From positions 1-64,000 of the IMG/VR virus record IMGVR_UViG_3300042274_000144: a stretch of 64,000 bases of DNA; one strand, written 5' to 3'. The stretch is from a virus. Taxonomy: Duplodnaviria > Caudoviricetes. Positions 17,194 to 54,356 of this stretch are shown piece by piece. Under the pieces are notes generated by a model. The model saw nothing but the letters and a program-made list of their open reading frames with translations. It did no database searches and had not been told where the DNA came from. The stretch's first letter is position 1. The number at the start of each line of letters is the position of its first letter. The position numbers were made by a program, and so were the translations under genes.

Positions 17194-18792
17194 ATGAAAA
17201 CAGACAAGTACGATCAGCGAATTATTGACATCGCAAAGCGTGCGAACGAGATGCGCTCTGCCCTGCTGGAGCCTGTTGTTGACCAGAACAACGGCGAGTT
17301 TATTGGCAACCGGGTGGAACAGGACGCACGCTTGAAGGACGCCGCGAAGGGGTCCGTCTACGAAAACATGGGTGAGGGAGCATCGACCGTGCTTGCAACT
17401 CACTCCAAGAGCTTGCAGCGTTACTGTACCGACAATGGCATGCCTTCAGATGAGCTTTTGGCTTCGGCCCACAAGTCTATCGAGAACGCCATGCTCATTA
17501 CCGAAAGTGAAAAACAGAACCGTCCGGGCGGCATTTTCGAGAGTGCCGAAATCAGCACTACCGAGGGTATCTTGATGCGTGACCGCATGGTTGCACTCAT
17601 CCTCCCGGTTATGCTGCAGTCTGTCACTTCCCGCATGGTGACGTTTATCCCCGGCGATTACAACCAATCTGAAATGTTCCGCGTTCGCCGTGTTGCCGGA
17701 AGTAACTTTGGCGACCTGAGCAAGGGCGATATCATTGATTACGACTACAATAGCCGTTACTCAGTGATGGATCAGCGTTGGCAGGCACCTTCGGGCGACG
17801 GCACCAAGACCGGCTCCACCGGTGAGTTCCAGCTTGACTCTGCAACCGTGTTTGGCACGGCTTACCCGTTCAAGCATAAGAGCGTCAAGATTCTGCATGA
17901 CCACGACATCGTAGCCGAGGACAACGGCAGCGGCTCTATCTTCGGTAGCTTCCTTGTGGGCGAGACCACTGTTAACGTTACCGGCACCGTGGACTATGCA
18001 ACCGGCACCGTAAGTCCCGTGTTCTCCGTTGCGCCCGCGAGCGGCATTGAGATCCACATCGGATTCGATGTTGACATTGAAAAAGACCCGGCACTTATCC
18101 CGCGTGTGGATCACACCATGGAAGCCGAAACTCTGTACCCGCATGAGAGTGCCATCAGCGCGAATACCACGCTCCAGGCTCTCTGGGGTCTGCGCCGCGA
18201 GTACAACCTGAACGCGGACAACATGGCAATGCAGGCAATGCGTAACCTCCTGTCTGCCGACAAGGACCGCAAGATTCTGCGTGACCTGTATTTCTTTGCC
18301 AAGGGCGAAACCGAGTGGAACATGACCGTTCCCTCCGGAACCTACTACCACGAGCACTACGAGACTGTTAAGGAAGAACTGCTCAACATCGACACCTACC
18401 TGATAGGTCAGAACGGATTTTCCGGACTGGTCGGATTGGTTGCCGACCCCAAGGCTAGCGCTATTTTCCGCAGCCTGAAGGCTCCTTTCTTCACTCCCGC
18501 GCCTGGTTATCGCAAGCTGGCACAGCCTCACTATGTGGGCCGTCTGTTCGGCATGTGGGACCTCTACGAAGACCCGGCTGCTGAAGAGTACACCGCGCTG
18601 TGCTTTGCTAAAGGCTCCAGCCATGGTGAAGCGGGTTACGTTGCGGGTGACGCTATTCCGGCGCTGAGCTTCAAGCATCCCACCATGACCGATCTTACCT
18701 ATCGCTCTACACTGTGGGACCTTGGCTACCGCGACCTTAACCCCTTCTATGGACGTAAGTGCTTCACTAAGCTCAAGATCACCACTGCATAA
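17194..18792 (+). CDS. Major capsid protein precursor (P1 gp23-like)
   Basis: 532 aa, strong RBS, about 116-aa propeptide ending at IFE/SA, followed by a stem-loop. Confidence 0.8.
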   Translation: MKTDKYDQRIIDIAKRANEMRSALLEPVVDQNNGEFIGNRVEQDARLKDAAKGSVYENMGEGASTVLATHSKSLQRYCTDNGMPSDELLASAHKSIENAMLITESEKQNRPGGIFESAEISTTEGILMRDRMVALILPVMLQSVTSRMVTFIPGDYNQSEMFRVRRVAGSNFGDLSKGDIIDYDYNSRYSVMDQRWQAPSGDGTKTGSTGEFQLDSATVFGTAYPFKHKSVKILHDHDIVAEDNGSGSIFGSFLVGETTVNVTGTVDYATGTVSPVFSVAPASGIEIHIGFDVDIEKDPALIPRVDHTMEAETLYPHESAISANTTLQALWGLRREYNLNADNMAMQAMRNLLSADKDRKILRDLYFFAKGETEWNMTVPSGTYYHEHYETVKEELLNIDTYLIGQNGFSGLVGLVADPKASAIFRSLKAPFFTPAPGYRKLAQPHYVGRLFGMWDLYEDPAAEEYTALCFAKGSSHGEAGYVAGDAIPALSFKHPTMTDLTYRSTLWDLGYRDLNPFYGRKCFTKLKITTA

Positions 18793-18819
18793 GCTTAGTT
18801 TCTGACGCATAAACTTTGC

Positions 18820-18854
18820 GGGGCAGGCCCACTGCATGACGGAGGGCTTGCCCC
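18820..18854 (+). terminator. Stem-loop after the capsid gene (mRNA stabiliser or attenuator)
   Basis: GGGGCAGGCCC...GGGCTTGCCCC 11-bp stem, no strong U tract. Confidence 0.55.
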
Positions 18855-18878
18855 GGTAAACCATAAAAGGAGCTACGC

Positions 18879-21075: not shown

Positions 21076-21792
21076 ATGAGAAATACATTTAACTATTTCG
21101 ACCAAATGGGAGGGGAGGAGTTCGCCCCTCTCGCTGCCAAACCCGAGACTGAAAAGCCGGAAGGCGAAGAGGGCGGCATTTTTGAGGCTGCCGGAGACGG
21201 TGCCCCTGCAGAGGATGTGCAGGTTCGCTCCATGGGAATGACAGCCGTGCTGTCGTGGGTGGCTGATGGTGATTTCACCTATCAAGACTTGGATGAGTAT
21301 GTCATCGGCATGGCTGACCTTGACGGCGATGAAGAGATTGCCGATGAGGAAGAGGAAGTTTACAACGATATCTGGCAAGCCGTTGCAGATGCCATGCTCT
21401 CCCTGGGTGCAGATGATGACAACGTGGCCGAGTTCATTGACGATGAGGACGATGATGCCGGTGAAAAACTTGGTACGTTCCTTTCTGATGTGCTCGACAG
21501 CATCACTTCTGAGGATGAAGGGATTATCAATCTGTTTGCCATCGGCAAAGAGGGTGCGATCTTCGAGAGCGCCGAGCCTGAAGAGGGTAGCGTATTTGAA
21601 GCTGCCTACAAAAAAGTGCGCGTTGTGCGTAACGGAAAGGTGACGTTCAGGAGAAAGCGCGTATCCGGGAAGGTTCGGCTTTCTGCAGCGCAGAAGCGCG
21701 GACTTAAAAAGGCACGGCGCAAGGCAAACACATCGGCGGCTAAGCTGCGGCGCAGGAAGTCCATGCGCCGTCGCAAGAGCAGGGGCATGTAA
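21076..21792 (+). CDS. Prohead core/scaffold protein (T4 gp68-like tail, P1 gp21 position)
   Basis: Very acidic body, extremely basic end RLSAAQKRGLKKARRK...RRRKSMRRRKSRGM; three FE/[AS]A motifs. Confidence 0.7.
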   Translation: MRNTFNYFDQMGGEEFAPLAAKPETEKPEGEEGGIFEAAGDGAPAEDVQVRSMGMTAVLSWVADGDFTYQDLDEYVIGMADLDGDEEIADEEEEVYNDIWQAVADAMLSLGADDDNVAEFIDDEDDDAGEKLGTFLSDVLDSITSEDEGIINLFAIGKEGAIFESAEPEEGSVFEAAYKKVRVVRNGKVTFRRKRVSGKVRLSAAQKRGLKKARRKANTSAAKLRRRKSMRRRKSRGM

Positions 21793-24788: not shown

Positions 24789-24942
24789 CGAAGGCGCTTG
24801 GAATACCATACTCGAAAACCTGTGCTTGTATGGTGGTCAGGATATGGGGTCAATTCTTGGCTGTGCAAAATCAAGAGTGTTGGCATTAAACAAAGCCCTG
24901 GTTCAGAAGTATAAAAAGAACAAGAAAAAGGTCAGATTATGA
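24757..24942 (+). CDS. Putative +1 frameshift extension of the chaperone (GT-like product)
   Basis: Open +1 frame after CCC TTT CGG, no plausible own start, ends overlapping the tape measure ATG. Confidence 0.5.
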   Translation, partial: FGISTTFQEYSEGAWNTILENLCLYGGQDMGSILGCAKSRVLALNKALVQKYKKNKKKVRL

Positions 24943-39229: not shown

Positions 39230-42200
39230 ATGAATCGTGACGATGTAAAAAGCCATATTGACCCCCGGTTTAACGGTATGCGCGTGCGCGGGGGAGAGGA
39301 TTTCTTTGCCAAGGGCTTCACCGAGGGGGAGCTGAATGCAGCCTACTACCAACTGACTGCGGCCCGGCATGATGACTGGATGATCCTTGAGGCTGCCGAT
39401 TTTACCGACGTAGACGCGTTCTACAACCCGGGTGAAGAGGCTGTTCCCGAAGGTTTTATCCTGGAGGCCGTGACCATCGAAAGCTTCTCGCGCACGTCTA
39501 AGCGCATGATGGCCGTGCAGCGCGTACTTGGCAAGCACCTGTCCGACAATGAAATGATCGACCCGCTGGAGCCGATTGTAGGTAAGCCGAAAAAGAGCGG
39601 CAACTTTGCTTACGTGACCGTGCAGCTCCCCTTCACTGACGGCCAGACGGTTTCCATCGTGTTTCACTCCCCGGAAGGTGACAAAAAGAAGATCGGCCCG
39701 AGCGATCAGCTGATTGCCTTCCGTTGGCTGCTCAATAAGCGCGACATTACCCAGGTGGTAGCTCCCGAGGCTGGCAAGGAGGTCAGTCTTGAACAGATCA
39801 GCAAGCGCATTGCGCAGCTGGTTGAGAAAAACCACAAGCGGTTTGTTTCCACACAGAAACAGGCGGTTGAGGAAAAGAAGCGCCTTGAAGAGCTTACCAA
39901 GCAGGCCGAGGATGCCGAGCAGCAGAATCAGGAGCTTGCAGAGCAGCTTTCCGAACTGGCAGACAAGGCCGAATCCGCAGACCTGCGCATCCAGAACACC
40001 CAAAGTCGAATCGACAAGCAGAAAGAGCGCAATGCAGAGCTTGAAGCCGAAATAGCGGCACTGCAGGCCAAGCGCAACGCTGATTCTGTTGGTGGGGATG
40101 CTGGGGGTGATGATGCTAAGTATGACCCTGAATCTGGCAACCCTCTTATTTCTGTTACCGCTGAATATCCGACACTTGAGAACAGAAATTCATGGAGCGG
40201 TGCAGCGCAAGATGTTTTCCATTTTACAGCAAAATCCGCACCCGAGAGCTTTCAGGAAATGGAAAACTTTATGGCGGACATCGCAAAGCAGGCCGGTATA
40301 AGTAAATACGGACGCCCCATTGTATTTAAAGACGATGTTGCATGGAAGGGCATTAAGGGCAAGAAGTACGCTTATGTGGCACGTGTGACAATAGACGGTG
40401 AAGATGGCAAACCAGCAATAAGGCTGGAGGCCAAAATGTCTCCCGACCAGGTTAATGGCGGCTATCGAACCACCAAGAGAAATCTGAATGGTGTTGATAG
40501 TCACAATTCGGTGAAAAGCCTTATCAGATCAGTCTCTCAAAAAGGGGAGCCGATTCCAATATCCCAAAAGGCTTTTGAGGACATTCTTGGTGCTTCCAAC
40601 GTAACTGATGGCGGCAATGCTGACGGCAGCGACACGAAGCAAGAATACAACAATGAATCAGAGGCAATGACTGCTGTCAGCAATGCCATAAAGGAGTCAC
40701 GGCAGCCCGGCTTCGGAAAATTTCGTGACCCTGAGTTTGTGAAAACCATCAATGAGGGTGTTAAGCGTGGGTGGCTCAACAAGAGGTCTGAAACTCAGAT
40801 TGACTGGACAGAGGAAGGCGTTAAGGCTTACCGCGAGCTGATTGCAGACAATAGCAGCGCCAACGACACCCCCGAAATGGAGCCCATCGAAAACCTCCCT
40901 GAAGGCTGGGAGCCGGTAAAAACCGAGATTGGCATTACCTATCGCAAGACCGTTAACGACGCCACGGTAGGCATTGAGGTGACACGGCGTGATGATGGAA
41001 CATTCAACGTCGAGCGTGTTGCCAAGGGCGGTGAAGAGCGCAGCAACCATGCCATTGCACAGGATGAAAAAAGGGCCGAGCGCCTTGCCCTGGAGCAGAT
41101 GAGCCAGGTTGATGCTGACTTTCAGCAGGGCGACAGTGACACGCCCGATGATGACGATGCCGACAAGCCAGCGCCAGCCATCCAGCCTGCCAAAGAGCAG
41201 AAGGGCAACCCGGCAAAGCGCATTGCCAAGCTGGTGCATAACCTTGGTATCGAATCCAAGATAATGAAGCCGGAGTTTTACGCCAAGGTGCCGAACGATC
41301 CGTACTTGGACCTTGTAATTGAATCGCACAAGGCCCCTGAAGGTGATGGGCTGCTGCTGTATTTCACCCACTACATCGAGGAGGGCGGCGACAAGATCAT
41401 TGATTCTGAGATTGTCATGCTGACCTACCCCGAAACCGGCCTGCTGAAGATGGTAGAGGTTGCCGGGCGCGGTCCACGCGGTGAGTTCCGCAGCAAAGAC
41501 AACTCTTTTGCCAACATCATTACCAAGAACCTGATTGACCAGGGCTTTGATAAGCAGGCGGTGAATGTGATTGGTGAGGGTGAGGGTCAAGGTGAAGGGG
41601 AGCCGGAACCTGACACCCGCGAACCTAAGCTCCCCGAGCCCACAAGCCGACAGGATGGTACAGCCGACAAGCACATTGAAGTTGAAATCGAGGACTTGCC
41701 CGCATTTGGGAAGGCCGAGATATTGAATGTCGGCAGCGAGAACATCTATGTCAAAAAAGATGGTCTGTTCTATTTCGCCAAGGTCTACAGCACCGAGAAG
41801 TACCAGCCGGGCATGTACGATTTTGCCAACGACAAGCCGGTAGATGAAGGCGCAAGCGCCAACTTCTCCCCCGGCGATACCGTGTATTTCTACCATGAAG
41901 CCAAGGGCGAATATGTGGAGGCCAACTATCGCGGTCCGCAGGGCGATGACAAGGCTGTTGTCGTTTACGACGGCTCAAACTGGACGCTTGGCAATGATGA
42001 GCTTTTTGCTGAGAAACCGGCAGAGCCAAGTGAGCCCGAACCCGATACCGCAAACCCGGCAGTAAACGCGGCCCGCGAAACCCTGCAGTCCATCATTGAC
42101 GGCGATTACGACAATGACCCGGACACGCTGGATAAGCTGCTCGACCAGGCGGCTGAAACGCTCGAAGAGGCCGGGGTTGACCTTGACGCTGACGAACAGA

Positions 42201-42262
42201 TCAACGCGGCAGCCGATCACGCAGCAGACCTTGCGATTGCGGCAGCCAAGGAGGTGCAGTAA
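39230..42262 (+). CDS. darA: DarA-like defence-against-restriction protein, extended
   Basis: DarA_N-type FTDGQTVSIVFH.P...WLLNKRDITQVVAPE.G...L.EKN..RF; coiled coil; acidic C-terminal helix bundle. Confidence 0.8.
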   Translation: MNRDDVKSHIDPRFNGMRVRGGEDFFAKGFTEGELNAAYYQLTAARHDDWMILEAADFTDVDAFYNPGEEAVPEGFILEAVTIESFSRTSKRMMAVQRVLGKHLSDNEMIDPLEPIVGKPKKSGNFAYVTVQLPFTDGQTVSIVFHSPEGDKKKIGPSDQLIAFRWLLNKRDITQVVAPEAGKEVSLEQISKRIAQLVEKNHKRFVSTQKQAVEEKKRLEELTKQAEDAEQQNQELAEQLSELADKAESADLRIQNTQSRIDKQKERNAELEAEIAALQAKRNADSVGGDAGGDDAKYDPESGNPLISVTAEYPTLENRNSWSGAAQDVFHFTAKSAPESFQEMENFMADIAKQAGISKYGRPIVFKDDVAWKGIKGKKYAYVARVTIDGEDGKPAIRLEAKMSPDQVNGGYRTTKRNLNGVDSHNSVKSLIRSVSQKGEPIPISQKAFEDILGASNVTDGGNADGSDTKQEYNNESEAMTAVSNAIKESRQPGFGKFRDPEFVKTINEGVKRGWLNKRSETQIDWTEEGVKAYRELIADNSSANDTPEMEPIENLPEGWEPVKTEIGITYRKTVNDATVGIEVTRRDDGTFNVERVAKGGEERSNHAIAQDEKRAERLALEQMSQVDADFQQGDSDTPDDDDADKPAPAIQPAKEQKGNPAKRIAKLVHNLGIESKIMKPEFYAKVPNDPYLDLVIESHKAPEGDGLLLYFTHYIEEGGDKIIDSEIVMLTYPETGLLKMVEVAGRGPRGEFRSKDNSFANIITKNLIDQGFDKQAVNVIGEGEGQGEGEPEPDTREPKLPEPTSRQDGTADKHIEVEIEDLPAFGKAEILNVGSENIYVKKDGLFYFAKVYSTEKYQPGMYDFANDKPVDEGASANFSPGDTVYFYHEAKGEYVEANYRGPQGDDKAVVVYDGSNWTLGNDELFAEKPAEPSEPEPDTANPAVNAARETLQSIIDGDYDNDPDTLDKLLDQAAETLEEAGVDLDADEQINAAADHAADLAIAAAKEVQ

Positions 42263-43248
42263 TGACCTTGTCATTCAAGGAGAAGCGCGAACTCACAAAG
42301 ATAGTCACAGGCAAAACCACCGAGATTCAAAATGGCGGGCTGTCGTTCAAGGAAAAGCGGGCCGCAACCAAGGCCCTGAACGATGCCGTTGTTAAGCTGA
42401 ACGGCAAGATTGACAGCATGGACAAAAAGGGGGCCGACACGCCCCCTGCACTCCAGGACCTGATTGACGGCAAGTTCAATGACCTTACGCCGGTTCAGTT
42501 TATTGCCAAGCTCGAAGAAATCAACAAGGAGCTTGACAGTGTTGACCCGCTCAAAGAGCCCACGCTGAATTACATCGAGGCCAAGCAGGAGCAAGGCGTA
42601 CTCGAATCCGCAGACATGGAGGCACTTCAGGCGTTTGGGCGCGGCATGGGTCAGGAAAAGCCACAGCAGGGCCATGGTAGCGCCGTGCGCGTCATGCCGA
42701 TTGCCGGGCCGGGGCAGCGTAACCCGAAGGCTATTACCATTGACATTGACGGCAACTTTACCGAGCCCGAGACCTTCCGCGAGATCATCCACACCATTGA
42801 GCAGGCAACACCCGGCGATGAAATAACGCTGAAGATCAACTCTCCCGGTGGGCGCACCGATTCGGCGCAGGCGGTGTACGTGGCGCTGCTTGAAACAGCG
42901 GCAAAGACCATTGCCAAGATCATCAACGCGGCCTCCTCCGGCTCTATCGTTGCCATGGCTTGCGACGAAATCCAGACAACGCCGTTTTGCACCATGATGA
43001 TTCACAATGCCAGCGGTGGCACACGCGGCAAAATGGGCGACATGAGGGCGCAGACCACCTACCATGAAAACCATTTCCGCAAGTGGTTCGGGCAGCTCTA
43101 TGCTGGATACCTAAGTAACGAGGAAATTGACGACCTGATGAAAGGGCAGGACTTCTGGCACGAAGAGGACGAAATTAAAAAGCGCCTTGAAAACTGGAAG
43201 CCCTTGCGCGAACGCCTGCAGGAAGATGGATCAGTGGTGGAGGCGTAG
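42262..43248 (+). CDS. DdrA-like N-terminal module fused to a ClpP-family (S14) serine protease
   Basis: LSFKEKR duplicated N-terminus; INSPGG, AASSGS, MIH, DFW ClpP motifs. Confidence 0.8.
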   Translation: MTLSFKEKRELTKIVTGKTTEIQNGGLSFKEKRAATKALNDAVVKLNGKIDSMDKKGADTPPALQDLIDGKFNDLTPVQFIAKLEEINKELDSVDPLKEPTLNYIEAKQEQGVLESADMEALQAFGRGMGQEKPQQGHGSAVRVMPIAGPGQRNPKAITIDIDGNFTEPETFREIIHTIEQATPGDEITLKINSPGGRTDSAQAVYVALLETAAKTIAKIINAASSGSIVAMACDEIQTTPFCTMMIHNASGGTRGKMGDMRAQTTYHENHFRKWFGQLYAGYLSNEEIDDLMKGQDFWHEEDEIKKRLENWKPLRERLQEDGSVVEA

Positions 43249-43354: not shown

Positions 43355-43600
43355 TTGGAATCAATGAGTCGCAACTTGATGAGCGCATTGCTGGTGCGGA
43401 GTTGGCCGAAGGATGAGGACGGAAAGCAGGAATATCAGCCGTTCAACTCAATTCAGAAGGCGAGGAACTATGTGTATTTGAGCCTAACCTTCAAGGATAG
43501 ATACACGAGGGAAGATTATTACTTTTGGGCAACACTTCAATCTGTGCCACAATGGTTTGACGAAGAAAAGGGATTGCCTAAGCTGGGAGAATCAGCATGA
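43355..43600 (+). CDS. Small hypothetical protein (possibly 3' part of a frameshifted gene starting 43252)
   Basis: Fills the gap in the operon and overlaps the next ATG; a 54-aa ORF at 43252-43416 precedes it in another frame. Confidence 0.35.
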   Translation: MESMSRNLMSALLVRSWPKDEDGKQEYQPFNSIQKARNYVYLSLTFKDRYTREDYYFWATLQSVPQWFDEEKGLPKLGESA

Positions 43601-44949
43601 CACCATATTCGTTTCGCATTGAAACACGCCTTGGGCCGCTCAATGTAGAGCTTCCGGAAACAGAGTGGGAAGAACCGGAGGGGGTGCGTCTGCACGCACA
43701 ATCCGACAGCCCGGTAGGTGAGTTTAGGCGCTTCGTGCGCGAGCATGGAATTGGGCTTAATGGAGTACGCTTCTCTGCTGACCTGTTTGCCCCGCAAGAC
43801 CTTCATGCTGCCCTCATACTGAGCGGCAACGACTACTTTTCATCGTGGGAAATAGAGTACGGATATAACCCGCATGACGATGAGGATGAGGACAATGGTA
43901 TCCTTGAATCATCCATCGACAGCGCAGCCAAAGACACCGACACCAAGCCCACCGAAGGGCAAAAACTGCAAGGCAATTACAAGAAGGGTTCCATTTCAAT
44001 AGATGGCCTTAAAGTCAAGATAGAAAACCCCGCAGGCAGCAAGCGCAGTGGCACCGATCCTAACGGTAAGAAGTGGGAAAGCAAGATGTGCTCTCACTAC
44101 GGCTATATTTCCGGCACCGAAAGCAAGGACGGTGACGAAGTTGACGTGTTTATTCGGCCCGGGATCATGCCGGAGGATGCCGTGAGAATGCCTGTGTTTG
44201 TGATTGACCAGGTTGACCCGAAAACCGGCAAGTTCGATGAGCACAAGGCCGTCATTGGACACAGGACTGCGCACAAAGCAAAGGCGGCATACCTTGAGTG
44301 CTACGAGAAGGGCTGGCAGGGGCTCGGCAAAACCGTGCGCATGGAGTGGCGAGACTTCAAAAAATGGGTGCAGGATAAGACTGGAACAAAGAAGCCTGCC
44401 GATGATAGCGTTTTTGAATCAACCCCCCAGCGCGAAGATTATGCTTTCGGCTGCCTCATGGCCTCACTGTCTGAGACCACATCTCAGGCGCTTTCCCATT
44501 TTGCCCGATCCTTGCCTGCCGGAGACATAAAAGAGTATTGCGATACCGGCGAGCCATGGATAGAGGAAAACCACCACATAACAATCAAGCATGGCATTCA
44601 GGACGGCATTACGGTTGACCGTGTTGAAAACGCCATGCCGGGGCTCCCTGTTATGTACGGGAGGCTTGGCAGACTGGCTGTGTTTGAGCACGACAGCTAC
44701 GATGTGCTTTACATCGAGGTCTACAGCCGAGACCTTACGGAAGCCAATCGTGCTATCGCCAACAATTTAACCTCTTACGAAACACAGGATCGTTATGTAC
44801 CCCATATCACCCTGGCATACCTACGCCCTGGTGCTGGCCGCAAGTACACAGGCATGGATTTCTTTTCTGGTATTGAACTGAAGCTCACCGAGATGGTCTA
44901 CACCGACCCGGACGGCAACGCATTCACCTTTTCACTTCAAAAGGGCTGA
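43597..44949 (+). CDS. Three-domain protein: unknown / InPase-like / 2H phosphoesterase (Acb1-like)
   Basis: GNYKKG...IENPAGS.RSG...HYGYI.GT...DGDEVDVF (InPase domain of polyvalent proteins); HITI and YVPHITLAY (two HxT motifs). Confidence 0.85.
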   Translation: MTPYSFRIETRLGPLNVELPETEWEEPEGVRLHAQSDSPVGEFRRFVREHGIGLNGVRFSADLFAPQDLHAALILSGNDYFSSWEIEYGYNPHDDEDEDNGILESSIDSAAKDTDTKPTEGQKLQGNYKKGSISIDGLKVKIENPAGSKRSGTDPNGKKWESKMCSHYGYISGTESKDGDEVDVFIRPGIMPEDAVRMPVFVIDQVDPKTGKFDEHKAVIGHRTAHKAKAAYLECYEKGWQGLGKTVRMEWRDFKKWVQDKTGTKKPADDSVFESTPQREDYAFGCLMASLSETTSQALSHFARSLPAGDIKEYCDTGEPWIEENHHITIKHGIQDGITVDRVENAMPGLPVMYGRLGRLAVFEHDSYDVLYIEVYSRDLTEANRAIANNLTSYETQDRYVPHITLAYLRPGAGRKYTGMDFFSGIELKLTEMVYTDPDGNAFTFSLQKG

Positions 44950-44951: not shown

Positions 44952-47900
44952 ATGATCTTAGAACGCACATCCACAACCGACATCAAAGGCATATCGCGAC
45001 AGGTAATGAGCGCCCGCAACCTGGGAGATATTACCTCTATACTGCGAAACATTTTCGACCTCAACGGCACGCCTGTTGCCGATCCGCAGGGGTACAAGTC
45101 CGGCAATTCAGATTACGGCTTGCGCGTGCGCGGCGTGAAGGCCCGCGAGCGCATCAACGATGCCGTGCGTGACATTCTGACGCAGGTTGATGATCCGGAA
45201 GAGCTGACAGATGATCAGCGCGACATGCTCTTGCAGTATTCCGGGCGCGGGGGCACCTCAGACAATAGCCAGTATGAATATTACACCCCTACCCATGTTG
45301 CGGAAGGCGTGTGGGACGCCATGCGTGAAAACGGCTTCGTGAATGGCAATGTGCTTGATCCATGTACCGGCTCAGGGATATTCAGCGGCACCAAGCCTGA
45401 AGGCTCCATTATTACCGGCAATGACCTTGACCCGGTGGGTTCCAAGGTTGCGGCCCTGCTCAACCCTGAAGACCAGATCAGCAACACCCCGTTCGAGAAG
45501 ATTGCCGTAGACACGCCGGACAACACCTTTGATGCCGTAGTTGGGAATGTGCCGTTTGGCAACGCACGCGGCAAGTCGGCACACATCGACCGCGCTTACA
45601 AAAAAGAGCGCCTTATCGAGCGGTATTTCCTGCAGCGCGTGCTTGACAAGGTTAAGCCCGGTGGCCTGTGCTGCCTGGTAGTGCCTATCAATATCGTGGG
45701 GCAGACCGGCAAGAAGTGGGAACAGTTCAGAATGGAAGTATCGCGCAAGGCTGAGTTCCTGGGTGCGCACAAACTTCCGTCCAAGACCTTTGGAGCACAA
45801 GGCACCGATACCGTTGTTGACGTTATTGTCTTAAAGAAACACCCGGAGGACTTGCTTGAAAAGATAAACGACCTGGATGCTCAGGTGCTATGGGATGCCA
45901 GTGTCTACTTCAAGGAGTTCATCAAGGGTAAGTATTGGCAGGGCGAAGGGCGGCGCTTCATCATGGGGAAATATACCCCCAAGGTTCCCGGCGACCGCTG
46001 GAGCCGCGAAACCGTGGATGGCGACGTTGACAACGAAGGGTTGAAGCGCAAGCTGGCGCAGAAGTTCAGCTCCCGCATTGCATGGGATGAGCTTGACGCG
46101 GCAGAGCCCCGGCCCATTGCATACGCTGACGGCGACCGACGCATGATCGGCGGCACCATGTACGAGCTTGCCGGTGGGCAGTGGCAGCCGGTAGACGAAA
46201 GGCAAGAGGCTGTTGAGATTTCCCGTGAGGCTTTCGGTGCTGAATCCCTCGAAGAGCTGGAAGGGCTACTGCAGAGTGCAGAGGGGCGGCTTAGCTTGAA
46301 CTTCGAGCAGGCCGACAACATTGCGCAGAACTATCCCGGCACCATGCCCGAAGAGCTTAGGGCTGCACATGAGTTTGCCAGCAGGCAGCCGGAGGAGATG
46401 CGCGGTCAGATCATGCGCGGCACCCTCATTGGCGGTATGATTGCCCGGGCGCAGAACGCCTTTGACCAGGGCGAGGATGTGACGGCTGAGCTTGAGCGTA
46501 TCAAGGCATACATAACTGAGGACATTGAGCGTCACGGCCTGCCATCGAACAACAAAAAGCTGCGGCTTTCCGGCGCTGATGCCAAGATGTACATGCGCTT
46601 CATGTCTGCCGTTGACGCTGAAGGCAATTTCAGCGACTTCCTGAAGGGCGAACGCGAACGAACCGGCAGTGGACAGGCTTACAACACCAATGATCCAGAG
46701 GCTATCGTTTCGCACCTGTTCGTTCGTGAGGACCGAGATTTTGTCGAGCTTGACGATATTGCCGAACGGTACACCGGAGAGCGTGAAATTAAAGACCTTG
46801 GCGACCTGGCCGAGTTCCCGGGCATTGCCGTTGATCCGGTCAGTGGCACCGCACTTCCTATGGATAAGTATTGCGTGGGCGATGCTTACGGTAAAGTGGC
46901 AAAGCTGCAGGAGGCCATTGCTGATACCGATGACCAGCGTCTTAAAGCACGCTTCCAGGAGCAGATAGATGAGCTGATGCGGCGCGTTAATCCGGTAAGC
47001 TCTGAGCGCATCACCTTTGGCTTAAAGCAGCGCTGGTTTAACCCTGAGTACCTTGTTGAGTTCCTGAAGGAGCAAGGATATGAGGGCGTTCAGTATGGCA
47101 AACCGTCTGTGGAGTTCGTGGAGGATTACGCGGGCAACATGCGCGAGCGCGAGACCTTTATCACTCCGTATGATGGCCCGGACGGTGAGTTTCGCGGCCT
47201 GCGCGGGCGCTTCACCGAAGAGCTGCAGAAATACCTCAATGGTGGCAAGATCGGCAACCGCAAGGACGATTCAGACCTGCACCATGAGCGCACGCGGATG
47301 CTTGAAGAACAGTTCAATAGCTGGATGAAACAGCGTGCGGACATTGATGAGATCGTTGCCGAGTACAACCGGCGATTCAACGGCCACATTCCGGCTGAGT
47401 ACAGCGATGAAGACCTGGGTATTGATGAGTACCTGGGCGAGGAAATCAAGCTACACGGATACCAGAACGCTGAAATCAGGCGGCTCTCTGAAGAGGGGCG
47501 CGGCATTTGCGGTTTCAATGTGGGGCTCGGAAAAAGCTTTGTGAGTCTCGGCCTGACAGCCTTTAACCTGAAAAAAGGCAGGTCAAAGCGCACCTGCATT
47601 GTTGTCCCGAAGAACACCCTGGAAAACTGGTATCACGAGGCGCGAGCCATCTATTCCGAGTCCTTCATGCGCTCCAGTGTGCATGTCATCGGCGTGCAGC
47701 CGGTAGCGGGCAAGGGCGGCAAAGTTAAACGTGTGCCTGTCCTCGATGAGCGCGGCGAACCCGTGGTTAAGGGCGGCAAGCAGATTTTCCGCGATGAAAT
47801 AAAGGTTAAGCTAGGTGCCAATGACAAGCTCGATGAGCTGTGGAGCGCACTGCAGTCTAATGCAAAGCTTATCGTTATGCACCGCGACCTGTTTGGACGC

Positions 47901-50900
47901 ATCCCCATCATGGATACCACGGTGGATGAATATGCCGGAAACATGACCATGGACGCGCTCAAGGATAAAAACGGTGTGCCCTTCGGCAAGAAAAAGGGCA
48001 AGTCCTACGATGAGGACAAGCAAAAAGCCAAGCTGGAACAGCGGTTTTCTGACACCGGCACGGAAAAGCGCGACGAATACCCGTACTTTGAGGAGTTCGG
48101 GTTTGACAATGTGATACTTGATGAGGTCCACGACTACCGCAACGCCTTCACCCCTGGGCGCGGCACCGCAGATATGCACTACCTGCCGACCGGCTCCACC
48201 TCCCAGCGGGCGCTGGATATTCACGTAAAGACCGATTACCTGCGGCGCAAGTTCGGCAACCGTGGTGTTATCGGGCTTTCGGCAACCCCCATTGTCAATT
48301 CACCGTTCGAGATTTACAGCCAGCTCTCCATGGTGTGCGACAAGTCAGACTTTGAGCGCATGGGCGTCTACAGCGTGGATCAGTTTGTTGATATTTTCGG
48401 CAAGGTCGAGCAGGTGGATAAGCTGAAGCTTTCGGGCAAGATTGATTCTGGCCCCGGGCTGGTTGGCTTCCAGAACCTCGATGCCTTGCGTGGCATGTTC
48501 AACAAATATGTCAACCTGAAGTCAGCCGAGGACGTGGAGAGCGAGATACACGTACCGGAGGGCAAGCGTCAGCCGGTCGAGGTTGAGCTGTCCGAAGAGC
48601 AGCAGGTAGCTTACGAGGAGTTGCGCGCGCGTGCGGCAAAGTCAGCAGACCCCGCTACCCCGGCAGAGGAAAAAGAGCATGTTTTCAGCCTGATCCGCGA
48701 AATGGACAGGGTGACTACCGACATGGACCTTTACCGTCGCACCATGTCCTTTGTGCTCCCGAGCAAGTACCGCAAGGCGGTTGAAGACCTGGAAAAGAAG
48801 CTGCCGGAAACCTACACCGCCACGGAAAAGGATGAGGAAACGGGCGAAAAGGTCAAGGTGCAGGTATCCTTCACAGCATCGTACCGTGATCATGGCTCAA
48901 CCTTTACGTTTGTGGTTCCGGAAAGCTACGAATCCCTTGTTGTGGCGCATTTTGAGGACTTCGGCATTGTAGAATCAGAGGTGGCGCATCCAATATCCCC
49001 AAAATATGCCGCCATGCTGGATAAGGTGCGCACGGATTATGAGTCTGGCGGTAAAGTGATTATCTTTACCGAGGAAAAGACTCAGCACCGTAAACTGCAA
49101 CGGATCATAACCAATCACCTGGGTGTGCCCGCTAAAGAAATCGGCATTATCAACGCAGCCGAAATCAAGGGCGATGACATGGACAAGATCGGAGCTGCAT
49201 TCAACACCGGCAAGCTGCGCGTAGTGATTGCCAACCGCAAAGCCGAGGTGGGTATCAACCTACAAAAAGGCACCACATCCATTATCCACCTGACGTTGCC
49301 CCTGGTTCCCGCAAGCTTCATCCAGCGCGAAGGCCGGGCAGTGCGACAGGGCAATGTAAACGAAAGCGTGGACATCGTAGAAATCAATGCCAAGGGCTCA
49401 TTCGATGCCTACCGCAAGGACATTCTGCGGGCCAAGTCAAACTGGCTCAACGAGCTGATGACCGGCGAAGATGCCACGGCTAAGAATCAGAACGTTGAGG
49501 ATGTTTCAGAGTTGCTTGAATTGCTGGCCGAGAACCCGGAAGAGGCTAAGCGTATTCATAAGGAGCGCCTGGGAAAGGAGAAAGCCAAGCGTGAAGAGCG
49601 GCGCAAAGCTGACACCATCAACAAGCTGAAGCTGGTTGCCAACGCAGAGAAGGCGCTGGAAAACATGGACAGCACCAAGGAGGCTGAGCGCCAGAAGCTT
49701 GCGGATAAAATTGCACAGGCCAATACCGGCATTGCGCAGGCGAAAAAGCGGCTCGAAAAAGACCCAGACAGCGACACGGCCAAGCGCAAGCTAAAGTTCA
49801 GCGAAAAGCAGCTCAAGGCAAGCACGGAAAAGCTCAACACCATTGATGTGCGCTACAAAGACATGGAAAAGACCCTGCAGCAGCGCATCAAGCAGACCAA
49901 GGGTTATCTGCGGCAAAAACACGAGGCCGGAGAGCTGCCCTTCGATGCGAGTCTGATTGAAAAGACCGACAGCTTTGTTGCTGATGCAAAAGGCAACGTC
50001 TATGCCGAGGGCGATACCTACGAGCTTCACGAGGTCAACCGCTACGGCAACCGCGAAAAACAGTTCGCGGGAGTGCTGAAGGTCAAGGCTGTTCATCCGG
50101 ACAGCAAGGAAATAGAGTTTGATTTTCTGGTAGGCAGCCCGAGCTATGACATGCGCGACCGTGTGCGCGTGGCCTCCCTGGACTCTGGCGGCAAGATACT
50201 GCAGAAGTGCTCTTACTCTGAAAAAGAGTTAGCCCTGAAGCGCCTTGAGGCGAAAGGCGATGTCCAATATGAGAAGCTGCCCGATTTGGGCGTCGACAAG
50301 CAACTGTTTGCTGAATCTTACGACACTATTAAGAGCCGCGTCAGGGGTCCGCTGGTGTACGAGGATAATAACGGCGATGTGCAGATTGGCTACGCCTACG
50401 AAGAACCGGAGTTTGAAGGACGCCTGCTCTATCCCGACATCCAGAATGAGCAGTTCCAGAAGCGCGTTTTCACCCGCTACCTACAGATACGTAGACGCAG
50501 CGATGAGGAGGGGGTGAATCCACCCTTTGAGGTGCGCAACACGCTCCAGAAGCTCTACGGGTACAGCTTCGAAGCCAAGGCCGAGGAGTACGGCGAAAAA
50601 GCCACTGAGCAGCAAATTAGAGAGGCTGTTGCGGACGCCTGGACAGAATATGTGGCGCGAAACGTGGGCGATGATGTTACGATGCACGAATATCTGCAAA
50701 AAGAGTGGTATTCTGCAACCAAAGAGATTGCAGGGCAGGTATCAAGCATTGGCGACAACACGGCTGAGATTAAACGCTTTGTCGATGAGTTTATTTCGAT
50801 AAAGAAGCGGGAGGCACGCGAAGAGCACGAGGCGCAACTTGCAGCCGAACGCAAGAAAGAAGAGGCCGAAGAGCAGGTCCGCATTGAGAAACTTAAAGAA

Positions 50901-51194
50901 AAAGGCGAATATGCAGAAATTCCACAAGAAATTGCTGAAAAGTATAATGGAATTGGGGTAAAACTGTTCGTGAACACTGTCGCCTTTGGCGGCTACGAGC
51001 CTTACTCGCGTTACATGCTTACTGATGAGCGCTTTGGGGGGCTGAGCAAGCAGTTCTTTGCCGGGCGCAAAAACCAGAGCCACAAGGATGAATGGGAGGC
51101 TACCGGAACAAAGCAGTGGCCTGAGCGCGACGGCTTCTGGTGGCATATCCCAACCGACAAAGACCTGAACGCACTTTACGAACTCCTTTCATAA
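44952..51194 (+). CDS. darB: DarB-like N6-adenine methyltransferase / SNF2 helicase fusion
   Basis: YYTP, VLDPCTGSG, GNVPFG; GLGKS, LDEVH, SATP, EVGINL, QREGRAVRQGN. Confidence 0.88.
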   Translation: MILERTSTTDIKGISRQVMSARNLGDITSILRNIFDLNGTPVADPQGYKSGNSDYGLRVRGVKARERINDAVRDILTQVDDPEELTDDQRDMLLQYSGRGGTSDNSQYEYYTPTHVAEGVWDAMRENGFVNGNVLDPCTGSGIFSGTKPEGSIITGNDLDPVGSKVAALLNPEDQISNTPFEKIAVDTPDNTFDAVVGNVPFGNARGKSAHIDRAYKKERLIERYFLQRVLDKVKPGGLCCLVVPINIVGQTGKKWEQFRMEVSRKAEFLGAHKLPSKTFGAQGTDTVVDVIVLKKHPEDLLEKINDLDAQVLWDASVYFKEFIKGKYWQGEGRRFIMGKYTPKVPGDRWSRETVDGDVDNEGLKRKLAQKFSSRIAWDELDAAEPRPIAYADGDRRMIGGTMYELAGGQWQPVDERQEAVEISREAFGAESLEELEGLLQSAEGRLSLNFEQADNIAQNYPGTMPEELRAAHEFASRQPEEMRGQIMRGTLIGGMIARAQNAFDQGEDVTAELERIKAYITEDIERHGLPSNNKKLRLSGADAKMYMRFMSAVDAEGNFSDFLKGERERTGSGQAYNTNDPEAIVSHLFVREDRDFVELDDIAERYTGEREIKDLGDLAEFPGIAVDPVSGTALPMDKYCVGDAYGKVAKLQEAIADTDDQRLKARFQEQIDELMRRVNPVSSERITFGLKQRWFNPEYLVEFLKEQGYEGVQYGKPSVEFVEDYAGNMRERETFITPYDGPDGEFRGLRGRFTEELQKYLNGGKIGNRKDDSDLHHERTRMLEEQFNSWMKQRADIDEIVAEYNRRFNGHIPAEYSDEDLGIDEYLGEEIKLHGYQNAEIRRLSEEGRGICGFNVGLGKSFVSLGLTAFNLKKGRSKRTCIVVPKNTLENWYHEARAIYSESFMRSSVHVIGVQPVAGKGGKVKRVPVLDERGEPVVKGGKQIFRDEIKVKLGANDKLDELWSALQSNAKLIVMHRDLFGRIPIMDTTVDEYAGNMTMDALKDKNGVPFGKKKGKSYDEDKQKAKLEQRFSDTGTEKRDEYPYFEEFGFDNVILDEVHDYRNAFTPGRGTADMHYLPTGSTSQRALDIHVKTDYLRRKFGNRGVIGLSATPIVNSPFEIYSQLSMVCDKSDFERMGVYSVDQFVDIFGKVEQVDKLKLSGKIDSGPGLVGFQNLDALRGMFNKYVNLKSAEDVESEIHVPEGKRQPVEVELSEEQQVAYEELRARAAKSADPATPAEEKEHVFSLIREMDRVTTDMDLYRRTMSFVLPSKYRKAVEDLEKKLPETYTATEKDEETGEKVKVQVSFTASYRDHGSTFTFVVPESYESLVVAHFEDFGIVESEVAHPISPKYAAMLDKVRTDYESGGKVIIFTEEKTQHRKLQRIITNHLGVPAKEIGIINAAEIKGDDMDKIGAAFNTGKLRVVIANRKAEVGINLQKGTTSIIHLTLPLVPASFIQREGRAVRQGNVNESVDIVEINAKGSFDAYRKDILRAKSNWLNELMTGEDATAKNQNVEDVSELLELLAENPEEAKRIHKERLGKEKAKREERRKADTINKLKLVANAEKALENMDSTKEAERQKLADKIAQANTGIAQAKKRLEKDPDSDTAKRKLKFSEKQLKASTEKLNTIDVRYKDMEKTLQQRIKQTKGYLRQKHEAGELPFDASLIEKTDSFVADAKGNVYAEGDTYELHEVNRYGNREKQFAGVLKVKAVHPDSKEIEFDFLVGSPSYDMRDRVRVASLDSGGKILQKCSYSEKELALKRLEAKGDVQYEKLPDLGVDKQLFAESYDTIKSRVRGPLVYEDNNGDVQIGYAYEEPEFEGRLLYPDIQNEQFQKRVFTRYLQIRRRSDEEGVNPPFEVRNTLQKLYGYSFEAKAEEYGEKATEQQIREAVADAWTEYVARNVGDDVTMHEYLQKEWYSATKEIAGQVSSIGDNTAEIKRFVDEFISIKKREAREEHEAQLAAERKKEEAEEQVRIEKLKEKGEYAEIPQEIAEKYNGIGVKLFVNTVAFGGYEPYSRYMLTDERFGGLSKQFFAGRKNQSHKDEWEATGTKQWPERDGFWWHIPTDKDLNALYELLS

Positions 51195-51205: not shown

Positions 51206-51622
51206 GTGAAAAACATCATAAAGCCTGAAAAAGACCAGGTTGAGGAGCTTATTAAGGTTGCCATGAACGGGCTCACCACCACCATCAGGGAGTGGGAAAG
51301 CAACTTTAGCGCCTCGCTGGTCGAGTTCCTGCAAAAGAACCCACTGCGATACAGGGGCTTCGGCCCCTACTGGTGGCTTGTAAAACGGGCGCTTATTGAC
51401 CGAGGGCACCTTGAATTTGGTGACTTTATCGACGCTGAAGTCTATGAGGCATTCGACTACGGCAAGCCATCAATCAATTTGGCCGCAGCTTTTTCATACA
51501 GCGAAGAGAGGTTCAGCCTGGGCAGTATGTACGAAAGCCGCCACGCCATCGAACATGAAGACGGCGATACTACCGAATACGTATTAGTTGATGAAGACAT
51601 GGAGCTGCTTGCGCGGCAGTAA
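51206..51622 (+). CDS. ulx: Ulx-like Dar accessory protein
   Basis: KNPLRYRGFGPYW..K..L..RG...FG...D...Y..P...AA..YS.ERF matches P1 Ulx as recalled. Confidence 0.7.
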   Translation: MKNIIKPEKDQVEELIKVAMNGLTTTIREWESNFSASLVEFLQKNPLRYRGFGPYWWLVKRALIDRGHLEFGDFIDAEVYEAFDYGKPSINLAAAFSYSEERFSLGSMYESRHAIEHEDGDTTEYVLVDEDMELLARQ

Positions 51623-51634
51623 CGGGAGTTTTTC

Positions 51635-53392
51635 ATGGCGAAAGCACGACGCAGCAAGAAAAAAGACGAACCCACGAGCGCAAGCACGCAGGAGATCGGC
51701 AGCAAGGCTCTTGACCTTCTGTTTCCGGCCCGGCGTGATGTAAGCGGATATGAGGAGCGCAGCGTTGACCTTCCCGCAACGGCTGCCGGGTACTTTGACG
51801 GGTTTATCGGCGGTGAGTACCTGGACCCGGTTAAGCAAGTGTTCAATGCCACATCCGAAGAGGATAAGCTTGTTCATACTCTGCCGGTTGAGCGCGTGGC
51901 AAAATATCCGTTCCTAGAGGCAATGAGCAAAGACCCAACGATTGACAGCGGTATCAAAATGCACATTGCCAATGCCCTGTCAGCCACGTCCGACACCGGT
52001 GAAATTCTGAAGATTGAAAGCACCGGCGATGCTGACGATCCTATTGTCAATGACCTGAACGATACGTTTAAGGAGCTTATAAACAAGAACATTCAGGAGT
52101 GGGCTTACACAGCTGCCACATTCGGTGCTGATTACGTGCGCGTGTACGGAGAGCGCGGCGTTGGTGTAACCCATGTGCGCAGCGACTTCTACACACACCC
52201 GCGTTTCATCCGCGAGTTTGAGAGGGCGGGCAGTCTGGCCGGGTTTACCTGCGCTTACCAGCATGGCAACCGCAATATCCGGCTCATGGAACCCTGGACT
52301 TTTGTGGGCTTCAAAATCCCGTACTGGCACCGCGATAACAATGCCGAGCCATACCGTGTTGATGCTTCCCCCATAGACCTTGCAAATGATGACTGGCAGA
52401 GCGAGTCAATAGCTGAAACGCAGCATTACGGCACCAGCCTGATAGAAACATCTTACGGACCGTGGTTCGACCTGATGGAGGCTGTTTTAAGTCTGAACAT
52501 GAGCCGTAAAAACGCTGCCCGGCTCGAACGGCTTATCGGCGTAAACACCGGAAAGCTCGACCCGCAAAAAGCTGCCAGCTACCTTGCATCCATTTCCAGC
52601 AACATCAAGAAGGCCAATAACAAAATGGCCGAGCAGTCGTTGCGCAAGGGTTTCGTGCAGACAGTCCTGAACCATATTATCCCTATTTTCGGGGATAGCC
52701 GGGGGCGCCTGGACATCAATACCGTGCAGGGAACGCCGGACATCCAGGGCATTGAGGATGTAACTTTCCATGTCAAGCGCCTGGGTAGCGCCCTGGGTAT
52801 TGACCCCTCACTGCTGGGCTTCGGTGAGATGCTTTCAGGCGGGCTTGGAGATGGCGGCTTTTTCCGCATGAGCATACTGGCCTCTATTAAGGCTCAGTCT
52901 CTACGTAGGGCCATGAAAACCGGACTTGAGCGCCTTTTCGATATTCACGTTGCCTACAAATACGGCAAGGTGTTTCTGCCGGGACAAAAGCCCTGGCGCA
53001 TAGTATTTAACAGCGTATCCACCGCTCTTGAGCGCGAGGAACGCGAAAACCTGGAAGCAAGGGCGAACCTTGCCCTTTCCATCGGCGGCATAGTGCCGCA
53101 GATCGACCCGGAGATGATGACCACGGACAAGCGCGCGCTTATGAACTACATCTTCACCGACATGCTCAAGATTGAAGAGGAAAAATTCAAGCAGATTTTT
53201 CCGGAGGGACTTGCAGACAAAAAAACTGAAGAGCAAAACGCAGGCGGTGGCATGGGAGGCGGCATGTTCGAGTCTGCCATGCCCGGCAGCGGCAAGGGCA
53301 GTGACGGCCTGACTGAAGAGCAAAAAGCAGAGATATACAACCTGATAAGCGATTTTTACGATGGAGGCGAAAATGAGCAGCAATATCGTTGA
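51635..53392 (+). CDS. Portal protein (P1 Prt-like)
   Basis: DPTIDSG...H...ALS, GID..LLGF..GGLGDGGF; darB-prt-pro order as in P1. Confidence 0.85.
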   Translation: MAKARRSKKKDEPTSASTQEIGSKALDLLFPARRDVSGYEERSVDLPATAAGYFDGFIGGEYLDPVKQVFNATSEEDKLVHTLPVERVAKYPFLEAMSKDPTIDSGIKMHIANALSATSDTGEILKIESTGDADDPIVNDLNDTFKELINKNIQEWAYTAATFGADYVRVYGERGVGVTHVRSDFYTHPRFIREFERAGSLAGFTCAYQHGNRNIRLMEPWTFVGFKIPYWHRDNNAEPYRVDASPIDLANDDWQSESIAETQHYGTSLIETSYGPWFDLMEAVLSLNMSRKNAARLERLIGVNTGKLDPQKAASYLASISSNIKKANNKMAEQSLRKGFVQTVLNHIIPIFGDSRGRLDINTVQGTPDIQGIEDVTFHVKRLGSALGIDPSLLGFGEMLSGGLGDGGFFRMSILASIKAQSLRRAMKTGLERLFDIHVAYKYGKVFLPGQKPWRIVFNSVSTALEREERENLEARANLALSIGGIVPQIDPEMMTTDKRALMNYIFTDMLKIEEEKFKQIFPEGLADKKTEEQNAGGGMGGGMFESAMPGSGKGSDGLTEEQKAEIYNLISDFYDGGENEQQYR

Positions 53393-54356
53393 GTGTAGTT
53401 TCAACCTGTTCAACGAGGGTCGAGAATATACGGGCAATCACCGCAAGTATATCCTTGAAAACGCACAGAAAATATGCAGAGCACCGGCCACTGCTGAGCG
53501 CATTAAACTGCGTGAGGCCCTGGGGTACTACGGGCATGGTCGGCGCATCCTTGCCAAGAAAATGAATCTGAGCGAGGTTGAGGCGGTTGAAATGCCGGAC
53601 GGCAGCAAGGTAATCGTGTCTAACGTGCCATCTAACGTTACCACTGAGTTTGTCGTGGAAAGCGACGGCACAGTGCGGCACAAGCAGGAAATTCTTGACA
53701 CCGAGACCGGGCGTATCGTTGCCGAGCTCAACAAGTCACGCGTGGGTGGCTTCTCCTGGGCTTGTCCGGGCAATGATGGCGGTGCCCTGGGAGCTACACG
53801 CCTGACAGGGTTTTCCGGCTTTGATTATGTGCTGAGCCCTGGCTTTGCCATGAATCGTGGCTACGTGCTTGAATCTGCCGTGGATCAGGACCAGATACTT
53901 GAATCCATCACGGCAGCTACCGGCATGGATGACAAGCGTGCTGAGGACATGCTGCGCGGCTGGGTGGCAAGCTCGCACTTCCGGGCCTGCGAACTTGAGG
54001 AGCGGCTGGAGACTGCAGAGCTTTACGAATCTGCACTTCTGGACAAACTCACCGGAAAAGAGGTTGAACTTAAAGACCTGTCGCGTGAAAAGCAGATTGC
54101 GGCTGAGCAGCTTGAGGCAGAGCGAAAACACCGGAAACAGCTTGTGGACTTCATTGTTGAATCGAGTCCATTCTTTATCCCTGAAGACGTGCAGCACGCT
54201 ATGATGGAAAACGACTTTGACCGCGCACAGGGTATCTTCGAGAGTGCAAAGCGTGTCGATTTCGGCCAGTTCCCGCTCAAACATGGGGATAAAAATCCGG
54301 AGGTTGACGGCAACCTGCCGCGTTACGGCTCACCGTCTGCCGGTTGGGACGTGTAG
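53373..54356 (+). CDS. Prohead protease (P1 Pro-like)
   Basis: GYYGHGRR, HKQEILDT..G, GGFSWA, GFDYV..P; four LE/FE-S motifs in its own C-terminal half. Confidence 0.82.
   Translation: MSSNIVECSFNLFNEGREYTGNHRKYILENAQKICRAPATAERIKLREALGYYGHGRRILAKKMNLSEVEAVEMPDGSKVIVSNVPSNVTTEFVVESDGTVRHKQEILDTETGRIVAELNKSRVGGFSWACPGNDGGALGATRLTGFSGFDYVLSPGFAMNRGYVLESAVDQDQILESITAATGMDDKRAEDMLRGWVASSHFRACELEERLETAELYESALLDKLTGKEVELKDLSREKQIAAEQLEAERKHRKQLVDFIVESSPFFIPEDVQHAMMENDFDRAQGIFESAKRVDFGQFPLKHGDKNPEVDGNLPRYGSPSAGWDV

Follow-up and report, generated by a model that had tools for sequence, protein, structure and literature searches.

A prohead-protease motif at the domain junctions of Dar-operon proteins in a distant relative of phage P1, and the probable splitting of multi-enzyme precursors by the head protease into individual injected enzymes

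As is textbook knowledge for phage T4, prohead proteases of the T4 type cut after glutamate and remove targeting propeptides from injected proteins. The substrates of T4 gp21 (gp23, gp22, IPI-III, and Alt) carry capsid-targeting sequences. The subject of this work is a 64-kb stretch of viral DNA (hereafter the window; positions 1 to 64,000 of IMG/VR record IMGVR_UViG_3300042274_000144, Caudoviricetes, which spans 77 kb in all) and a five-residue motif, [IVM][FL]E[SA][ASTVI], that recurs there in head proteins and between the domains of Dar-operon proteins. By sequence, the phage is a distant relative of coliphage P1. Virion presence and ejection are known for P1 DarA, DdrA, DarB, Ulx, and Hdf (PMC9024508; PMC12810830), and the maturation site of its capsid protein gp23 was mapped by Edman degradation (Gonzales et al.) to E120|S121, yielding the mature N-terminus SVAAEM (PMC9024508). 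T4-type prohead proteases also occur in the giant phages phiKZ (gp175), 201phi2-1, and SPN3US (gp245), where they cut after A/S/G-X-E; the ejection proteins of these phages carry propeptides of 111-254 residues holding several motif copies (PMC10052503). Both motif and lineage differ from those of the window phage, which is P1-like and about 80-90 kb in size. Finally, the polyvalent proteins described by Iyer, Burroughs, Anand, de Souza, and Aravind in 2017 share with the window and its relatives the domains InPase, 2H, LPD3, PBECR, ART-PolyVal, ddrB-ParB, and DarA_N. Their processing was ascribed to an embedded metallopeptidase domain (MPTase; PMC5512222), while the junctions described here carry a prohead-protease motif. 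In the literature searched, neither a consensus for the P1 prohead protease Pro nor sites in DarA, Pro, the portal, gp21, or DdrB are described, and a systematic placement of a motif between the enzyme cassettes of polyvalent Dar-operon proteins is not reported either.

The motif is probably the recognition site of Pro (with a probability of about 0.72): the protease would mature the head proteins and also cut Dar-operon precursors into separate injected enzymes. As in P1, homologues of Hdf, DarA, DdrA, DarB, and Ulx lie beside the portal (Prt) and Pro in the same order (assigned by PHROG, Pfam, and BLAST to P1 proteins). The operon differs from that of P1 in two respects: DdrA forms a fusion with a ClpP-like peptidase, and the place of DdrB is taken by a protein consisting of an N-terminal module (the tag), an InPase domain, and a 2H phosphoesterase domain. 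The relatives used for comparison are G001 (82 kb; capsid 60% identical), L004, L006, L014, P0001, and P0154, with P1 itself as L002. All window features given below are encoded on the plus strand.

The link between the motif and capsid maturation comes from the major capsid protein (P1 gp23/T4 gp23-like, 532 aa, 17194..18792; phrog_1014 and a weak Pfam Gp23 match), which is 30% identical to P1 gp23 over 99% of its length. Its site IFE|SA begins at residue 114 (nt 17533-17547), with a predicted cut after E116. In a pairwise alignment, the segment GGIFE|SAE lies opposite P1 KAMLE|SVAAE column for column, and the mapped P1 site, MLE120|S121, itself fits the pattern of the first-pass annotation, which had been made from the nucleotide sequence and had proposed cutting after Glu as in T4-type proteases. 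Homology to the P1 site thus suggests that the window capsid is cut after Glu with an aliphatic residue at position P3.

The candidate protease is encoded at the end of the same gene block. Pro (331 aa, 53361..54356) is, according to structural modelling, a serine protease whose fold is that of T4 gp21 and herpesvirus assemblin. Sequence searches of Pfam and PDB with Pro gave no match even at E<=10. An AlphaFold (AF2) model built from 117 homologues (predicted local distance difference test, pLDDT, 83.6) contains an alpha/beta domain at residues 2-161 followed by a long helix. The best PDB match of this domain is T4 gp21 (5jbl_B; Z 10.6, root-mean-square deviation 3.2 Å, 131 of 164 residues; VIA-align), followed by six herpesvirus proteases at Z 5.6-7.3, including those of varicella-zoster virus, pseudorabies virus, human cytomegalovirus, Kaposi's sarcoma-associated herpesvirus, and Epstein-Barr virus. 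Foldseek alone recovered T4 gp21 only at E 0.03, and it was VIA-align that settled the match. Invariant in all 117 homologues are not only H59, H107, and S132 but also E171, E181, and E294, the Glu residues of three putative self-sites (VLE|SA, 53865-53879; ILE|SI, 53895-53909; IFE|SA, 54234-54248). The first of these is situated directly after the catalytic domain, inside the sole disordered linker of the model (161-174). VLESA169 and IFESA292 align with MFESA168 and LFESL293 of P1 Pro. The predicted self-cut resembles the behavior of SPN3US gp245, which also removes its own C-terminal propeptide (PMC10052503). PHROGs (phrog_1801) and the RefSeq record of P1 (P1 pro, L002:19014-20033) list the Pro family under a wrong label, 'tail fiber protein'.

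The distribution of the motif supports a role confined to head and Dar proteins. The first-pass annotation had listed 13 matches to [IVM][FL]E[SA][ASTVI], all of which are indeed present at the positions it gave. They fall into 7 of the 102 open reading frames (ORFs) of the 77-kb record, namely those of the capsid, a P1 gp21-like protein, DarA, the DdrA-ClpP fusion, the InPase-2H protein, the portal, and Pro; the other 95 ORFs contain no strict site. The count over all ORFs and the enrichment test suggested by that annotation give 13 sites, compared with an average of 1.3 and no more than 6 across 2000 per-protein shuffles. With the shorter pattern [ILVM][FL]E[SA], the 11 head/Dar proteins yield 13 matches (1.9 expected) and the proteins outside this set yield 3 (4.4 expected); two of these three are VLESR, in agreement with the earlier remark that matches in tail proteins are followed by Arg. 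Most window sites have Gly at P4 or P5, a feature that lies outside the search pattern. The head/Dar proteins of P1 contain 10 copies of the four-residue pattern (~1.8 expected), as opposed to 5 in its other proteins (~6.6 expected); the corresponding values for G001 are 8 (~1.9 expected) and 8 (~6.7 expected). The codons vary among the 13 window sites (Ser is encoded by both AGY and TCN, and the Glu, Leu, and Ile codons differ as well), which indicates selection on the peptide and rules out a DNA repeat or a recombination linker as the origin of the motif. The consensus proposed here is [I/V/M]-[F/L]-E|[S/A]-[A/S], cut after Glu and frequently preceded directly by Gly, Pro, or an acidic residue.

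Two cargo proteins place the motif between enzyme domains. The first (328 aa, 42262..43248) joins a DdrA-like module (phrog_1855, residues 57-110) to a ClpP-family serine peptidase (Pfam CLP_protease, 175-267). Its site VLE|SA (42598-42612; residues 113-117) is located between the end of the DdrA-like match at residue 110 and the ClpP part, which begins at 154-175, so that the junction was placed correctly by the first-pass annotation. The stand-alone DdrA of P1 (121 aa) ends exactly where the window fusion carries VLESA. Orthologues have IMESA (L004) and VMESA (L006, after an extra inserted domain) ~45 aa before ClpP, so the ClpP module is preceded by [IV][LM]ESA in 3/3 cases. The second protein, tag-InPase-2H (450 aa, 43597..44949; Pfam InPase 121-259, 2_5_RNA_ligase2 344-411), contains ILE|SS (43900-43914) and VFE|ST (44410-44424). 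These occupy residues 102-106 and 272-276, on the two sides of InPase and ahead of 2H (from ~286-344), again as first described. An orthologue of 64% identity (P0001) keeps both sites. The first ~100 residues share homology with the N-terminal part of larger L004 and L006 proteins that contain InPase; in an alignment of these tags, the LES of the first site is invariant and the neighboring acidic linker varies. Modules that end in the motif are the DdrA-like part (1-115), the tag (1-104), and DarA 1-79, and by Pfam the window proteins combine several enzyme domains in one chain (InPase with 2H, DdrA with ClpP). A match to ddrB-ParB, the domain that in DdrB accompanies a C-terminal peptidase, was sought in the Dar operon of the window and not found; the domain is present in the relatives L004 and P0154 and in P1.

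The presence of a ClpP-family peptidase domain in a Dar operon that already has a dedicated head protease raises the possibility that cargo-embedded peptidases, ClpP-like here and zincin-like MPTase elsewhere, process the polyproteins instead of Pro, and Iyer et al. indeed proposed in 2017 that polyvalent proteins, P1 DdrB among them, process themselves by means of MPTase domains (PMC5512222). This is highly improbable. The same motif is the proven maturation site of the capsid in P1, which is devoid of a ClpP-like Dar protein; it is conserved in the self-sites of Pro, and the ClpP module is itself preceded by it. Moreover, Pfam (E<=0.001-0.01; distant versions may escape) detects no MPTase in the two window cargo proteins or in 10 multi-site relatives. 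As an observation apart, the peptidase is encoded as Dar cargo although Pro fills the role of head protease, and its possible targets include host defence proteins or the cargo.

Recognition by Pro also agrees with the wider family of the tag. A profile of the N-terminal module of the InPase-2H protein was searched against 1.84 billion representative proteins and recovered 42 proteins of 98-2750 aa, in ~40 of which the module is N-terminal (two large proteins have their best match at an internal position); a word-indexed search had returned a single homologue of similar length, so the profile search was needed to collect the family. Its members contain 53 sites against 5.7 expected (maximum 13 in 500 shuffles), which amounts to an enrichment of ~9-fold over composition-keeping shuffles. 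Ala occupies P2', a position on which no selection was made, in 33 of the 53. The first site usually falls at residues 96-141, and further ones follow at domain-sized spacing. The junctions were assessed in 14 Pfam-annotated proteins (ten multi-site members together with window and locus proteins). Together these proteins have 41 sites, of which none falls within the Pfam domain envelopes that make up 25% of their residues (P ~6e-6). In 12/13 InPase domains, a site is found 13-29 residues upstream of the envelope, irrespective of whether the domain is the first, middle, or last; where another site follows closely, its distance from the end of the envelope is 13-15 residues, except in one protein, where it is 35. 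The survey of relatives proposed in the first-pass annotation also brought up other motif-flanked domains: besides InPase, cassettes of LPD3, PBECR1/3, ART-PolyVal, and ddrB-ParB. Two of the multi-site proteins could be traced to contigs with the synteny Hdf-DarA-...-DarB-Ulx-portal-Pro.

Sites in this family are often preceded by acidic, Gly-rich, or Pro-rich linker sequence, as would be expected if the motif arose by chance from the composition of acidic linkers. A related proposal sees in it a docking or targeting signal, e.g., for the inner capsid surface or for Pro. In T4, the short capsid-targeting sequence overlaps the cleavage site, which speaks for such a signal. Of all the readings considered, this one has the lowest probability: the homologous P1 site is cut, the enrichment persists against shuffles that preserve composition, codons differ between sites, and packaged proteins free of the motif exist (DarB, Hdf, and Ulx).

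A more conservative proposal accepts true Pro sites only in the capsid, Pro, DarA, and the gp21-like protein; in the cargo, the first site (removing a propeptide) or none would be used, and the multidomain proteins would stay intact. Precedents are available. In SPN3US, all mapped cuts except that of the protease itself represent removal of N-terminal propeptides, and release of several enzymes from one chain is not described there (PMC10052503); N4 vRNAP-type polyvalent proteins are packaged unprocessed (PMC5512222). The peptide coverage of P1 DdrB in virions, 59.5%, fits an intact chain or the retention of both halves. Nevertheless, this restricted use of the sites is unlikely, as the internal ones recur at domain-sized spacing, share the extended consensus of the first site, and are never found inside domains. 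The second InPase-2H site is conserved in P0001, and unused sites are hard to square with conservation in otherwise variable linkers.

Of the remaining proteins of the operon, DarA and the portal carry sites; Hdf, DarB, and Ulx carry none, which matches what is known from P1. DarA (1010 aa, 39230..42262; DarA_N and DUF6908 by Pfam) carries ILE|AA (39383-39397) and ILE|AV (39458-39472), predicted to remove an N-terminal propeptide of ~79 aa; the latter aligns with LLE68|A69 of P1 DarA and with VLE|AI in L004 and L006. In a P1 cryo-electron microscopy (cryo-EM) study of 2026, DarA is visible only from residue 70, and a known loss of ~9 kDa is cited (PMC12810830). Together with the Edman-mapped gp23 cut (PMC9024508), this bears out the earlier statement that the P1 capsid and DarA are processed. 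Hdf (202 aa, 38619..39227; phrog_1620, Pfam DarA_N) has no site, and P1 Hdf is reported as unprocessed (PMC12810830). The DarB-like methyltransferase/helicase (2080 aa, 44952..51194; phrog_1685, phrog_11801, Pfam) contains neither a strict nor a relaxed site; the first 30 residues of P1 DarB suffice to target a protein to the capsid (PMC9024508). The Ulx-like protein (138 aa, 51206..51622; phrog_1629, 35% identical to P1 Ulx) is also free of sites. The portal (T4 gp20-like, 585 aa, 51635..53392; phrog_1497, Pfam Portal_T4) has MFE|SA at 53264-53278, where a cut would take off the C-terminal 39 aa. In P1 Prt (569 aa), ILESV occurs at residue 557, in a tail segment (534-569) that is invisible in cryo-EM.

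Applied to P1, the consensus predicts cuts in DarA (LLE68|A69), Pro (E170 and E295), the portal (ILE559|S), gp21 (E87), and DdrB (GGLFE441|S). The corresponding coordinates in L002 are 27904-29823 for darA, 24542-27529 for ddrB, and 17312-19021 for prt; P1 DarA has in addition a possible earlier LMTE|S at residue 40.

Several observations weigh against cleavage of the cargo by Pro. The P1 DdrB product has been reported as ~76 kDa (PMC5512222), a size that does not match a cut at its sole site. The site of P1 gp23 is the only experimentally proven one of the whole family (PMC9024508), and the evidence for the window phage consists of sequence and models. Within Pro, the second site (ILESI) is placed in a confidently predicted helix. 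The portal site is loosely conserved, being LLTESA in G001 and absent from L014. Packaging does not depend on the motif, as DarB, Hdf, and Ulx are packaged in P1 although they lack a site. In G001, the consensus-like GGPIFEAAME is found outside the head set, in a tail protein that resembles a tape measure (G001:C1:48714-51557, L010); this may be due to chance or to tape-measure processing by another route. As to statistics, the pattern was defined after its matches had been seen, and an exact k-mer scan of the window is unremarkable after correction (three copies of IFESA, P ~1e-6 uncorrected, among ~24,000 k-mers). The case consequently rests on replication in P1, G001, the tag family, and the gp21 family, with the reservation that site counts within a family come from related sequences and are not independent events.

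The gp21 family constitutes the last of these replications. The window protein (238 aa, 21076..21792) is 40% identical to P1 gp21 and contains three sites: IFE|AA (21178-21192), IFE|SA (21559-21573), and VFE|AA (21592-21606). In 109 homologues, 202 sites were counted where 8.8 would be expected, and they cluster in three columns of the alignment that correspond to the window sites; IFEAA35 aligns with ILEAA85 of P1 gp21. An acidic helical domain (residues 45-156) precedes a very basic C-terminal tail (176-238). The AF2 model (pLDDT 80) consists of a disordered N-terminus, the helical domain, a linker (165-175), and a tail folded as a basic hairpin plus helices, and all three sites fall within or border on disordered linkers of low model confidence (pLDDT <50 at 30-34 and 165-175). 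The fold is not tube-like. Compared with the PDB, the model gave no convincing match, only helical bundles at E ~1; a search of a protein atlas returned its own family alone, auto-labelled from the legacy name 'tail tube'. Databases indeed label P1 gp21 as 'baseplate or tail tube'. The P1 tube is formed by BplB and its initiator is Tub (PMC12810830), and the window has homologues of its own for both BplB (22399-22926) and Tub. P1 gp21 is found neither in the virion proteome table of P1 nor in its cryo-EM model, and it scores as essential, with polarity of the knock-down being possible (PMC10695390). As the sites lie in linkers, the fold is not that of a tube, and gp21 is absent from the P1 virion, the gp21-like protein may be a prohead internal or scaffold protein, which would be new for P1-type phages. 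The label 'core protein' in the first-pass annotation is not established: the gene is a homologue of P1 gp21, for which a role inside the prohead is plausible.

If the motif acts as proposed, Pro would be activated inside the prohead and would cut after Glu in [IVM][FL]E|[SA][AS]. It would remove a scaffold-like N-terminal arm of 116 aa from the capsid protein (leaving 117-532), trim the C-terminus of the portal (leaving 1-546), and cut itself after the catalytic domain and in the helical tail (giving 1-171, 182-294, and 295-331). The gp21-like protein would be dismantled, with its acidic helical part separated from a basic peptide (1-37, 38-164, 165-175, and 176-238), and DarA would lose its propeptide (leaving 80-1010). 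N-terminal modules would bring the Dar precursors into the prohead, where cuts at interdomain linkers would yield DdrA-like 1-115 and ClpP-like 116-328, as well as the tag 1-104, InPase 105-274, and the 2H phosphoesterase 275-450. Once released, the enzymes would be retained in the head and would exit with the DNA in the manner of P1 Dar proteins.

The polyprotein idea of the first-pass annotation thus stands as far as the sequence features are concerned: the motif has the signature of a prohead protease (homology to the P1 site, fold of Pro), and the sites are conserved, delimit domains, and follow a conserved N-terminal module. We infer the remaining parts: that the new sites are actually cut, that the N-terminal modules suffice for targeting, and that the products stay in the head, are ejected, and counter host defence. 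A resemblance to T4 is evident in the shared protease fold, the cut (predicted here) after Glu with an aliphatic P3, and a substrate set that ranges from the capsid protein, core proteins, and the protease itself to injected proteins with anti-restriction or host-modifying functions, whose N-terminal targeting peptide is cut off at the motif (Alt: PMC5512222). In contrast to the T4 tags of ~10 residues, each on a cargo of one protein, the N-terminal modules of the window comprise ~100-130 aa and look folded; P2 is restricted to F/L and P1'-P2' to S/A-A, and sites occur also between the enzyme domains of one precursor.

A broader generalization, to which slightly less than an even chance is given, would treat the interior of P1-like capsids as a polyprotein-processing compartment, in which any enzyme domain flanked by [IV][LF]E|SA linkers behind an N-terminal module of ~100 aa is packaged, excised, and injected. 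Cassettes (InPase, LPD3, PBECR, ART, ParB-like, 2H, and ClpP) would be shuffled freely between phages, and the gp21 family would be the missing prohead core or scaffold, dismantled at three sites. The 'expandable platform' envisaged in the first-pass annotation is a possible reading that fits the shuffled cassettes of the relatives. For the P1-type prohead protease, a testable cleavage consensus is now available where one site had been mapped. The proposal also offers an answer to the open question of polyvalent proteins: multi-enzyme virion proteins would be separated by the head maturation protease and not by embedded peptidases. The motif combined with the N-terminal module could serve to find virion-delivered counter-defence enzymes in metagenomic phages, or to guide the packaging of heterologous proteins in capsids of the P1 type, already in use as delivery vehicles.

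Gene order between 12 and 54 kb, all on the plus strand, tracks that of P1 (PHROG and Pfam annotation). Tail genes similar to gp25/7/24/6/5 are followed by the capsid, sheath, gp21 homologue, PmgG, BplB, PmgC, Tub, and PmgB, then by the tape measure, baseplate, fibres, and a reverse-transcriptase cassette, and finally by Hdf, DarA, DdrA-ClpP, a small ORF, InPase-2H, DarB, Ulx, portal, and Pro. Metagenome bins of the Desulfovibrionaceae type are the main source of the homologues of Pro and of the gp21-like protein. Nucleotide searches of a phage collection with the capsid and Dar regions gave no match, and relatives were reached at the protein level only; scans of viral contigs with single proteins returned nothing for InPase-2H, the DarA N-terminus, and Pro, and 3 loci for DdrA-ClpP. 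The small ORF (81 aa, 43355-43600), located between the genes for ClpP and InPase, shares 4 nt with the start of the latter and has neither a family match nor the motif. The reverse transcriptase (33868-34929; Pfam RVT_1, phrog_1423) adjoins a tail-fibre gene and a small accessory ORF (with 30646-33621), and the cassette is probably a diversity-generating retroelement.

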